DNA of 64,000 nt from a virus. Positions 1,475 through 57,367 of the stretch are shown here, one piece after another. The translations under genes and the position numbers were made by a program. How positions within the stretch are numbered: the stretch's first letter is position 1; the number at the start of each line of letters is the position of its first letter. A model generated the notes under the pieces. The model was not told the origin of the DNA, searched no databases, and saw only the letters and a list, made by a program, of their open reading frames with translations. Where the stretch lies: the IMG/VR virus record IMGVR_UViG_3300018465_000004, positions 29,019 to 93,018 of that record; one strand, 5' to 3'.

Positions 1475-2476
1475 GTGATCGAGAGCCAGCAGATAGAGAT
1501 CGCCGACGCGGTGGGCGCCTTACCCGTGCTCCCCGTAGATAACGCGCACGACCGGTACGGAGCCCGCGGTCTGACCGCGGCCTGGATCGCCCAGCTCACC
1601 TCGCGGCACACCCGCAAGGCGTACTTCACCGACCTCGCCCGGTATCTCGCCTGGTGCCAACTGGACGGCCTTGATCCGCTCCTGGCTCGGCCGGTTGATG
1701 TCGACCGGTACAAGGCGACCCTGACCGGCGCAGCCTCCTCGGTTAACCGCCGACTCTCCTCGCTGTCAAGCTGGTACCGGTACCTGCACACCAACGGAGC
1801 GGTCGATTCCAATCCGCTTGCGGCGGTCCGCCGACCGAATGTCGACCGGGACGCCTCGACAACGCTGGGCATGACCGTCTCGGAGGTCAAGCAGCTCCTG
1901 GTGGTCGCAGATCAGATCGCCGTGGCGGCGGCTGAATGGTCATCGTGGCGACGGCTGACTGCCCACCGGGATCGCGCTGTGGTCCGCTGCCTGGCGGACA
2001 TGGGAATGCGGGTTGACGAGGTCGTCCAGCTCGACCGTGAGCACATGACCCACAACCGTGGTTACCGGACCCTGCGCTACACCGGAAAGGGCGCCAAGCT
2101 CCGCGAGAGGGCGATGCCGGCGCACCTGCTGGAAGCTCTCGACGAGTACCTCGAACTGCGCCCGGATATCCCCGGCGCGTTGTTCGTGACCCGCAGCCGT
2201 GGCGATGCGTACGGCCGGATCGACGCCGCTTGCGTTTTCCGCCTGGTACGCCGGCTCGCGGCGATCGGACAGATGCCGGCCGCTGACCGGTATTCCCCTC
2301 ACGTCCTGCGGCACGCCTTCGCGACCAACGCACGGGACGCAGGCATTGCCCTGGAAGACGTCCAGGACGCGATGGGCCACGCCGATCCCCGGACCACCCG
2401 CCGCTATGACCGGGCGCGTAATGCGCTGCACCGGGAGCCGGGGCTGCGACTCGGCGAGCTGTACGCCGACGAATGA
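1475..2476 (+). CDS. Tyrosine recombinase, XerC/D-like (no arm-binding domain)
   Basis: SAM-like N-terminus; catalytic R (GMRVDE), K (GKG), HxxR (HVLRH), H (MGHAD), Y (TRRYD). Confidence 0.93.
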   Translation: MIESQQIEIADAVGALPVLPVDNAHDRYGARGLTAAWIAQLTSRHTRKAYFTDLARYLAWCQLDGLDPLLARPVDVDRYKATLTGAASSVNRRLSSLSSWYRYLHTNGAVDSNPLAAVRRPNVDRDASTTLGMTVSEVKQLLVVADQIAVAAAEWSSWRRLTAHRDRAVVRCLADMGMRVDEVVQLDREHMTHNRGYRTLRYTGKGAKLRERAMPAHLLEALDEYLELRPDIPGALFVTRSRGDAYGRIDAACVFRLVRRLAAIGQMPAADRYSPHVLRHAFATNARDAGIALEDVQDAMGHADPRTTRRYDRARNALHREPGLRLGELYADE

Positions 2477-27255: not shown

Positions 27256-27492
27256 GTGCGCTCATCCACCGTCTGGTTCGACGACCTCGGCGACCTCATC
27301 AGCATCGACCTCGATCTCACCCGCTATCCCTACCGACTCGTCGAGCGCTACGGCTCTCGGGTCGTCGTCGTGACCCGGTTCTGGCGAGAGAGGTCCGCCA
27401 CCACTGCCTTTCAGGCCGCGATGCTCAACGCGGAGGCACTCGTCGATGCCCTCAGCCACCAACCGCAGACCGTGATCCGACCGTTGTTGTAA
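27256..27492 (+). CDS. Hypothetical protein, leaderless
   Basis: Class II promoter, -10 element 5 nt before GTG. Confidence 0.55.
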   Translation: MRSSTVWFDDLGDLISIDLDLTRYPYRLVERYGSRVVVVTRFWRERSATTAFQAAMLNAEALVDALSHQPQTVIRPLL

Positions 27493-27524
27493 CCCGTAGC
27501 GGGCTAGCTCGTTGATCTGAGTGA

Positions 27525-27598
27525 GCCTCGGGTAGCTCAACCGGAAGAGCGGCCACCTTAAAATTGGCGCGTTGTGGGTTCGACTCCCACCCGGGGCA
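27525..27598 (+). tRNA. tRNA with anticodon UAA (reads UUA), short variable loop
   Basis: Acceptor GCCTCGG/CCGGGGC, D stem GCTC/GAGC, loop CTTAAAA, 5-nt variable loop, T arm GTGGG-TTCGACT-CCCAC, A73, no encoded CCA. Confidence 0.8.
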
Positions 27599-27775
27599 CG
27601 TGGGCCAGCGCCGTCCCCTCGCCATGCACAAAAGGACGGCGCCTTCCCGTCCGTGCTTGCCCACGGGACGGGCCTTACCCCAACGCACCGGTGACGCGAG
27701 GCACCAGAGGTTCACTCAGGGTAGACCTGACGACTACAACTGTCCAGGTTCATTCACGCAGCCGATGTAACTGGC

Positions 27776-28594
27776 ATGAAGGTCGGGATCAACGCCTCAC
27801 CTGCCGAGCTGGCCATCGCACTCCAGACGTACCCGCAGGTCGGCACCAGCCGAGTCTTCGGTGCGCCCGGCAAGGGTATCCCCGGTTGGACCTCCACTGC
27901 GGTCAACCTGCTCCGCAAGGCCGGTGTGATCCCGTGGCTGTCGTTCAAGGACTGGGCCAACGACACCACCGCCACCGCAGCCATCAACATCTGGCTCGAC
28001 ACCATGCCGACAGACGTCCCGCAAGCCTGGCTCACCTACCACCACGAGCCCGAAGGCGATCTGCTCAGCCGGGAATACCGCCGCCGCTGGACGCTACTGG
28101 CCAAGACCGTCCGGTACCACGACAACGCCGAGCGGGTGAAGCTCGTCCCTATCCACACCCTCTACCCGTCCCGGCACAAGGCCAGCGACCGTTACAGCAC
28201 CGACTGGACGGACTGGATCGGCGTATGGCAGCAATGGGCACCCCAGGACGCCGCCGGACGCTACATCGGCGACTACATCGGCTGGGACTGCTACCTGGAG
28301 ACCACCGCAGCTCAGTACGAGCCGCCCGAGCAGTTCTTCGCCATCCCCATCGGCGCCGCCCACCAGCTCGGCGCCACGCTCGTCGTTCCTGAGCTGGGAT
28401 CCCTGCGCATCGGCAGCGACACCACCGGGGCCGGCCGCGCCGCCTGGATCACCGGTTGCGTCGACTACCTGGCCAGCCGCAACGTCGCAGCCGTCAACTG
28501 GTGGCACAGTACCGGCTCGGCCGGACAGGACTACCGACTCATCGACACCGCCTCCGCCGACGCATGGAAGGCGGCACTCGACCGCTTCCGCTGA
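27776..28594 (+). CDS. GH26-like glycoside hydrolase
   Basis: YHHEPE acid/base motif, GWDCY, VPELG nucleophile, NWW. Confidence 0.6.
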   Translation: MKVGINASPAELAIALQTYPQVGTSRVFGAPGKGIPGWTSTAVNLLRKAGVIPWLSFKDWANDTTATAAINIWLDTMPTDVPQAWLTYHHEPEGDLLSREYRRRWTLLAKTVRYHDNAERVKLVPIHTLYPSRHKASDRYSTDWTDWIGVWQQWAPQDAAGRYIGDYIGWDCYLETTAAQYEPPEQFFAIPIGAAHQLGATLVVPELGSLRIGSDTTGAGRAAWITGCVDYLASRNVAAVNWWHSTGSAGQDYRLIDTASADAWKAALDRFR

Positions 28595-57289: not shown

Positions 57290-57363
57290 CGCGGGGTGGC
57301 GCAGTTCGGTAGCGCAGCGGGCTCATAATCCGCAGGCCATGGGTTCAAATCCCATCCCCGCCT
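57290..57363 (+). tRNA. tRNA-Met(CAU), initiator-like
   Basis: CGCGGGG acceptor with C1xC72 mismatch, loop CTCATAA, T arm ATGGG-TTCAAAT-CCCAT; no encoded CCA. Confidence 0.9.
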
Positions 57364-57367
57364 CGAT

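Follow-up and report, generated by a model that had tools for sequence, protein, structure and literature searches.

What does a phage gain from a tRNA that reads UUA, and which amino acid does that tRNA carry? UUA is the rarest codon of high-GC actinomycetes, where it is decoded by the bldA-type tRNA that in Streptomyces is tied to development. The question is raised by a 74-nt gene in the 64,000-nt stretch of DNA analysed here (hereafter, the window), which comprises bases 29019–93018 of a 137.6-kb virus record in IMG/VR (IMGVR_UViG_3300018465_000004; rated complete, 66.7% GC). The gene has the bldA-type anticodon UAA on a short-armed body, and an initial annotation of the sequence offered three explanations for it: a bypass of bldA, a tRNA that inserts another amino acid at UUA, or a decoy for anticodon nucleases. 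[quoted passage not shown]

A short-arm tRNA gene with anticodon UAA

ARAGORN called tRNA-Leu(taa) at 27525–27599 of the window, and reading of the sequence gave a 74-nt tRNA up to the discriminator A73 (Table 1). As a membership criterion we required a match to Rfam RF00005 above the gathering cut-off together with a full-length cloverleaf; the locus reached 42.9 bits where the gathering score is 29 (E = 1.7e-7 when 1.2 kb was searched, 4.4e-9 for the whole genome), aligned over model positions 1–71 as a full-length cloverleaf. All four peculiarities that the initial annotation had listed, namely the UAA anticodon, a variable loop of 5 nt, an extra G after the acceptor stem and a C31xU39 mismatch, were confirmed by sequence reading, with ARAGORN and RF00005 in agreement. 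The leucine anticodon with a variable region (GCGUU) in the 4–5 nt range and no extra hairpin places the tRNA in class I; the long variable region or arm of the bldA type (class II) is absent. A 59-kb contig from a second public assembly (ENA ERZ27251397), possibly built from the same reads, shows no difference over 6.8 kb, a stretch that covers the extra G and the anticodon. No public sequencing run holding the tRNA region was listed, nor any RNA run. Together, these results identify a genuine tRNA gene with a short arm.

Table 1 Features of the tRNA gene and its surroundings (positions in the window)
Feature	Position	Strand	Evidence
tRNA gene, anticodon UAA, CCA not encoded	27525..27598	+	ARAGORN, RF00005, sequence read, second assembly identical
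Acceptor stem GCCUCGG/CCGGGGC, 7 bp including U4.G69			sequence read
Extra G at the junction of acceptor stem and U8; 3-nt connector G-U-A	27532..27532	+	sequence, folds, family comparison
D arm GCUC-AACCGGAA-GAGC, with A14, A15, G18, G19	27535..27550	+	sequence read
Anticodon arm, stem GCCAC/UUGGC with C31xU39, loop CUUAAAA	27552..27568	+	sequence read
Anticodon UAA	27559-27561	+	sequence read
Variable loop GCGUU, 5 nt; U48 able to pair with A15	27569..27573	+	
T arm GUGGG-UUCGACU-CCCAC, with G53, U54, U55, C56, A58, C61	27574..27590	+	
Discriminator A	27598	+	sequence read
Intergenic segment with the tRNA, 283 nt	27493..27775	+	tblastn synteny, L183 junction sequence
Upstream 78-aa ORF, ending 32 nt before the tRNA	27256..27492	+	ORF list; homologue in L183
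Downstream 272-aa ORF, family unassigned	27776..28594	+	62–66% identity in L183 and L184
Two GC-rich hairpins just 3' of the tRNA	27608-27616/27634-27642, ~27647-27672	+	fold

The stems are intact at 20 of 21 pairs, C31xU39 being the sole mismatch, which weakens the anticodon stem, and the universal tertiary bases are all kept. The cloverleaf has a folding energy of −30.3 kcal/mol, within 2 kcal/mol of the unconstrained minimum (−32 kcal/mol), and the alternative Infernal register that leaves out base 1 is much worse (−17.7 kcal/mol). Unconstrained folding does not yield the cloverleaf; GC-rich tRNA sequences without modifications often behave in this way, and it is not evidence against a gene. 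Isoenergetic with the 7/5 cloverleaf, at −30.3 kcal/mol, is an 8/4 fold with an 8-bp acceptor stem and a 4-bp T stem, in which the extra G pairs with C65. The predicted structures thus make that G either a bulged third connector base or half of an eighth acceptor pair; as this tRNA is without a close homologue, comparison leaves both folds standing. Its oddities are therefore three: UAA on a body with a generic 4-bp D arm, a connector of three bases, and C31xU39.

Such oddities might be marks of decay, in a class I tRNA that was recently acquired, whose anticodon drifted to UAA and whose folding, processing or charging was lost. The extra G, C31xU39 and the modest Rfam score, when set against 62.5 bits for the tRNA-Met of the same phage, would fit this, as would two observations presented below, that the body is indistinguishable from that of non-leucine class I tRNAs and that the closest relatives do not have the gene. 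We nevertheless consider decay quite improbable, given the near-complete stems and the retained tertiary bases, Rfam scores in the 30s and 40s for many phage tRNAs of related genomes, and mismatches at 31–39 in 25 of 546 phage tRNAs and in a native Streptomyces type I tRNA-Leu(CAA), found in the chromosomal search described later.

The tRNA-Met(CAU) is the only other tRNA in the whole record (ARAGORN, 57290–57364; Rfam match at 57290–57363, + strand, of the window). It is initiator-like, with an unpaired first base (C1 opposite C72) and a GGG run in the anticodon stem, and it ends in discriminator U, which is unusual in an initiator tRNA.

Genome context and the probable gain of the tRNA

Upstream of the tRNA lie genes for RecA, MazG and a phrog_1362-family protein, and downstream large glycine-rich proteins with minor-tail-like matches. 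A metagenome scan produced a set of closer relatives (L183 to L195; 56–73% identity, GC 67–68%, contigs up to 122 kb). In the closest of these, L183, the counterparts of the two ORFs flanking the tRNA (78 and 272 aa) are separated by only ~18 nt, against 283 nt here (tblastn), and a short motif directly before the start codon of the 272-aa ORF is conserved. No tRNA was found within 5 kb of the marker gene in any of these relatives (~11-kb loci, on contigs JACCDR01... and WUUC01...). On this comparison, the tRNA and its trailing hairpins appear to be a lineage-specific insert of ~265 nt, a recent gain or else a loss in the relatives, and the absence of the tRNA from the closest relatives means that it is dispensable for this type of phage. 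Searches of IMG/VR gave no match to an exact 39-nt word of the tRNA and no locus related to the downstream 272-aa protein; a plasmid collection gave generic tRNA matches only.

More distant relatives (G001 to G005 and Microbacterium phage Magritte; 39–50% identity) carry 14–44 tRNAs each, clustered in arrays that occupy the corresponding site behind the same gene. Set beside the lack of tRNAs near the marker in L183 to L195, this makes the tRNA content of the group very fluid. The arrays mix long-arm with short-arm (73–75 nt) leucine tRNAs, with anticodons CAA, UAG, CAG and GAG. Magritte, the only cultured relative (~37% amino-acid identity on two proteins), keeps the order RecA, phrog_1362, tRNA array (L151; OR553905.1 68365–76104); its array combines long-arm Leu(caa, gag) with a short-arm Leu(cag) of 74 nt, is immediately preceded by a gene for a HicA-like toxin and is followed by a Ro-like RNA-binding protein. 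G001 to G004 have gene order in common with this phage at 46–65% GC, and the hosts of the group apparently differ widely in base composition. Elsewhere, Gordonia phage Smoothie and ~15 of its relatives have an 81-nt gene annotated as 'tRNA-OTHER / undetermined' (L022 153–233), which shows 74% identity to the present tRNA over 74 nt and receives no ARAGORN call.

The best named homologues of the phage's HTH_31-DUF5753 regulator come from Catenuloplanes, Micromonospora and Actinoplanes, and from this hint, given by a single gene, we guess that the host is a Micromonosporaceae-like actinomycete. The phage encodes no class Ia (LeuRS-type) synthetase, CCA-adding enzyme or RtcB-type tRNA repair gene, and host enzymes must therefore serve for charging and for addition of the CCA end. 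No sigma-70-type promoter was found between the 78-aa ORF and the tRNA, which makes co-transcription with that ORF the simplest assumption, and a probable one. The two hairpins behind the tRNA may act as a terminator or as a processing signal; no obvious U tract is seen on this strand, they fold no more stably than shuffled sequences (z −0.47), and a terminator scan near the tRNA gave a site on the minus strand only.

A tyrosine integrase (window 1475–2476, + strand; Pfam Phage_integrase) suggests that the phage may be temperate, and with it comes a second explanation for the tRNA, which would still carry leucine: the integrase may insert into a host tRNA gene that is not restored in the process, leaving the phage copy to replace the lost function. 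TRNA-dependent lysogeny of this kind is established in actinobacteriophages, for example with the tRNA-Leu-CAA of Gaia (PMC10865867), and a tyrosine integrase accompanied by just two solo tRNAs, one of them a recent single-gene gain, would suit it. The integrase lies 25 kb from the tRNA, however, and no attP-like core in common with either phage tRNA rose above chance near it, the best candidates measuring 9–11 nt and falling mostly inside the int ORF. Moreover, the UUA tRNA is dispensable for growth of Streptomyces (PMC2000904), so that its loss would not force complementation, and we regard this explanation as unlikely. The tRNA itself was also considered as the attP and rejected, because the gene is complete and pairs its own acceptor stem, lies 25 kb off the integrase and has no partial copy elsewhere in the genome.

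Short-arm leucine tRNAs and the amino acid carried

We searched IMG/VR with a pattern taken from this tRNA (anticodon loop, nine free bases, T arm). At least 119 contigs matched, and a short-arm tRNA-Leu(UAA) was present in 79 of the 80 loci examined. Among the 72 unique sequences of this family, the acceptor strand comes in 47 versions, and 68 of the sequences keep all seven acceptor pairs; every one of the 72 has A73 and a two-base connector, and none has the three-base connector seen here. Short-arm tRNA-Leu(UAA) is also annotated in the cultured phages Acinetobacter phage Acibel004, Myxococcus phage Mx1 and cyanophage P-RSM6, and short-arm tRNA-Leu occurs in the relatives G002 to G005 and in Magritte. 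The design is thus common in phages, although we found no paper describing it as a phage feature in a literature search of incomplete coverage.

It is also native to bacterial chromosomes. A covariance model built from 40 phage short-arm leucine tRNAs with five anticodons detected chromosomal type I tRNA-Leu in two Micromonospora (CAA, with CCA encoded), Actinoplanes utahensis, a Micromonosporaceae metagenome-assembled genome (MAG) and a Streptomyces, the last being the tRNA-Leu(CAA) with its own 31–39 mismatch. One Micromonospora tRNA-Leu(CAA) has the D loop CAACCGGAAGAG, as here, and is identical at 57 of 74 positions. The statement in the initial annotation that bacterial tRNA-Leu has a long variable arm is therefore too absolute, since short arms are native to Streptomyces, Micromonospora and Actinoplanes as well as being found in cultured phages and at least 119 contigs. 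The Micromonosporaceae MAG has in addition a class II tRNA-Leu(UAA) with loop CUUAAAA and a 10-nt variable region. In A. utahensis, 15 tRNA genes form a dense array within 1.3 kb (L343 957–2256), and a Micromonospora sp. likewise has an array (L344 1230–1747); both contain short-arm leucine tRNAs with anticodons CAG and GAG, and these chromosomal arrays look like mobile tRNA array units.

Would such a tRNA be charged with leucine? The review by Giege and Eriani (2023, PMC9976931) lists as marks for bacterial LeuRS A73, U8:A14, A15-U48, G18G19 and their T-loop partners, and treats the long arm and the anticodon as dispensable for the E. coli enzyme; PMC6614811 is a second source for these marks. 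All of these marks are present in the phage tRNA (A73, U8:A14, A15-U48, and G18G19 with U55 and C56), and the 40 aligned short-arm phage leucine tRNAs, with their five anticodons, show no variation at U8, A14, A15, G18, G19, U48 or A73. The combination of A14, A15-U48 and A73 was found in 98 of 120 leucine and 44 of 415 (~11%) non-leucine phage tRNAs, and is thus ~8 times commoner in leucine tRNAs. A 19-mer of the D arm is, however, identical in 73 Thr, Trp, Arg, Lys and other tRNAs and in no leucine tRNA, so A15-U48 comes with this type of arm and is weaker evidence than it might seem. Home-made isotype HMMs with the anticodon masked gave 34.3 bits for Met, 32.9 for short-arm Leu(UAA) and 31.0 for Ile, and the short-arm leucine covariance model gave 61.0 bits, in a range where true short-arm leucine tRNAs (61–83) and non-leucine tRNAs (up to 68) overlap. 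By these comparisons the body is generic class I, for which reason we grade leucine identity as likely and not higher. Because short arms are widespread among phages and also occur natively in the probable host family, this is most probably an ordinary leucine-carrying tRNA with two odd details.

The same generic body leaves some room for recoding, with an amino acid other than leucine inserted at UUA. The obvious candidate is phenylalanine, since PheRS reads A35, A36 and A73 and the loop CUUAAAA is one base off the CUGAAAA loop of the relatives' tRNA-Phe; an unpaired 31–39 would also give a nine-base loop, which might read more than three bases. By established identity rules, however, each synthetase that reads the anticodon would find one or more of its key bases wrong in UAA. 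For PheRS in particular, U34 removes a major determinant (PMC9976931). The canonical long-arm tRNA-Leu(UAA) of G001 also has C31xU39, no broken reading frame was noticed at TTA in the genes checked, and the checkable TTA codons (below) align with leucine or methionine, never with phenylalanine. Recoding, as proposed initially, is on these grounds disfavoured, and either form of it seems to us very unlikely indeed.

C31xU39 is found more widely among the relatives: together with the loop CUUAAAA in that tRNA of G001 (L023 14211–14293), and also in the Arg(UCU) of G002 and G003 and the Gln(UUG) of G001. Its recurrence hints at selection on the pair, and this bears on the third option, counter-defence, in which the phage copy would replace, or act as a decoy for, a host tRNA-Leu cut by an anticodon nuclease or a VapC- or Schlafen-type tRNase, its odd shape making it a poor substrate. 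Phage tRNAs have been shown to evade tRNA-targeting defences (PMC10264068, PMC11464382, PMC11555353), and the present tRNA has been retained despite few TTA codons. We found no report of a nuclease targeting tRNA-Leu(UAA), though; the phage is without an RtcB-type repair gene, and within the window the tRNA is linked to no defence or anti-defence gene. Nor does the short arm need a defence explanation, because short-arm tRNA-Leu is native to the chromosomes of the likely host family. Counter-defence is, in our view, decidedly doubtful.

Proposed UUA decoding and comparison with known systems

No sense codon is used less often by the phage than TTA, which occurs 9 times in ~31,700 codons, against 200 times for TTG (crude gene calls). 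Three are in supported genes: codon 257 of the clamp loader, codon 279 of the HTH_31-DUF5753 (Scr1-like) regulator and codon 280 of a phrog_19090 protein. The two that could be checked against homologues fall in leucine-like columns: of 29 homologues of the regulator, 23 have leucine there, 5 methionine and 1 arginine, and the column for the phrog_19090 protein reads L, L and M. Six of the nine lie, by crude gene calls, in the ~19 kb around the integrase (14.4–33.3 kb of G000). A further TTA, in a metallophosphoesterase ORF, was set aside as probably non-coding because it is upstream of the start in the public gene call (334 versus 458 aa). None of the nine is in regions that align with G001 to G004. 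The rate does not significantly exceed that of close relatives without the tRNA, at 9 in 34,351 codons compared with 2 in 25,593 (0.26 versus 0.08 per 1000, p = 0.13, regions unmatched). The initial annotation had called UUA the rarest, developmentally regulated codon of actinomycetes; the regulation would apply only with a sporulating actinomycete as host, which is a guess.

In our preferred reading, host-charged leucine decoding of UUA, the tRNA would be transcribed with the small upstream ORF, matured by RNase P and the CCA-adding enzyme of the host, and charged with leucine by the host LeuRS. It would then decode UUA, and UUG too by wobble if modification of U34 allows, so that TTA-bearing phage genes (those for the clamp loader and the HTH_31-DUF5753 regulator, and others) would be freed from the host's scarce bldA-type tRNA. 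We infer expression, leucine charging and a benefit to the phage. The bldA bypass that had been suggested at the outset therefore survives as the best reading, favoured by the commonness of the design, the counterparts in the host family and the TTA codons at Leu/Met columns, with leucine charging as its conditional step.

If the tRNA is charged with leucine, a phage of a TTA-poor actinomycete brings its own decoder for a codon that its hosts ration, and an actinophage case is added to the short-arm leucine tRNAs that are common in phage genomes. Antonov et al. (2023, PMC10732093) point out that phages of Streptomyces generally do without UUA, and propose that avoidance of this codon may shield hosts from phages. 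A bolder form of the reading, which we hold to be rather unlikely, is that the single-gene insert serves as a private bldA, making the TTA-bearing early and lysogeny genes (the regulator, the clamp loader and possibly the integrase) follow expression of the phage tRNA and not the developmental state of the host. If true, it would defeat TTA scarcity, a proposed actinomycete barrier to phages, and the 8/4-capable fold and C31xU39 might help further in tuning decoding or in evading tRNases of the host. The gene is in any case a cheap test object, at 74 nt in one insert, with natural relatives that do not have it.

Compared with known systems, the phage tRNA belongs to the type I tRNA-Leu already known from actinomycetes and phages, with the three individual oddities given above. 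The Gaia type of tRNA-dependent lysogeny (Guerrero-Bustamante and Hatfull 2024, PMC10865867) likewise involves a solo tRNA in an integrase-bearing actinobacteriophage, but here no attP core was found near the integrase and the tRNA is far from it. The bldA tRNA of Streptomyces and the type II tRNA-Leu(UAA) of the MAG have the same anticodon, and the MAG copy also the loop CUUAAAA, but these are chromosomal class II tRNAs with a longer variable region, whereas the present tRNA is phage-borne with a 5-nt loop.

Closer is the phage short-arm Leu(UAA) family of Acibel004, Mx1, P-RSM6 and the at least 119 contigs, to which the tRNA is identical at 56–58 of 74 positions. The length of 74 nt, the loop CUUAAAA, the 5-nt variable loop ending in U48, the T arm GUGGGUUCGAnUCCCAC and A73 are alike; where the pattern was derived from this very tRNA the agreement is circular, but it does show that tRNA and family have the 3' half in common. 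The D arm differs: the family has a leucine-type 3-bp stem, a 10–11-nt loop of the CAAnnGGCAGA type and a two-base connector at 8–9, whereas here a generic 4-bp arm with an 8-nt loop follows three bases; most family members are, moreover, on low-GC contigs (median 39% GC). With the type I tRNA-Leu(CAA) of Streptomyces coelicolor and the chromosomal counterparts, the tRNA has in common the actinomycete context, a length of ~74 nt, the 5-nt loop, A73, U8:A14, A15-U48 and G18G19; it differs in its UAA anticodon, in being phage-borne, in the 4-bp instead of 3-bp D stem, in the extra base before U8 and in the lack of an encoded CCA. The S. coelicolor tRNA, a native chromosomal one and the subject of the sole biochemical study of a short-arm tRNA-Leu among the literature that we found, is leucylated by the single LeuRS of that organism, and the length of its 5-nt loop matters (Fan 2019, NAR, PMC6614811).
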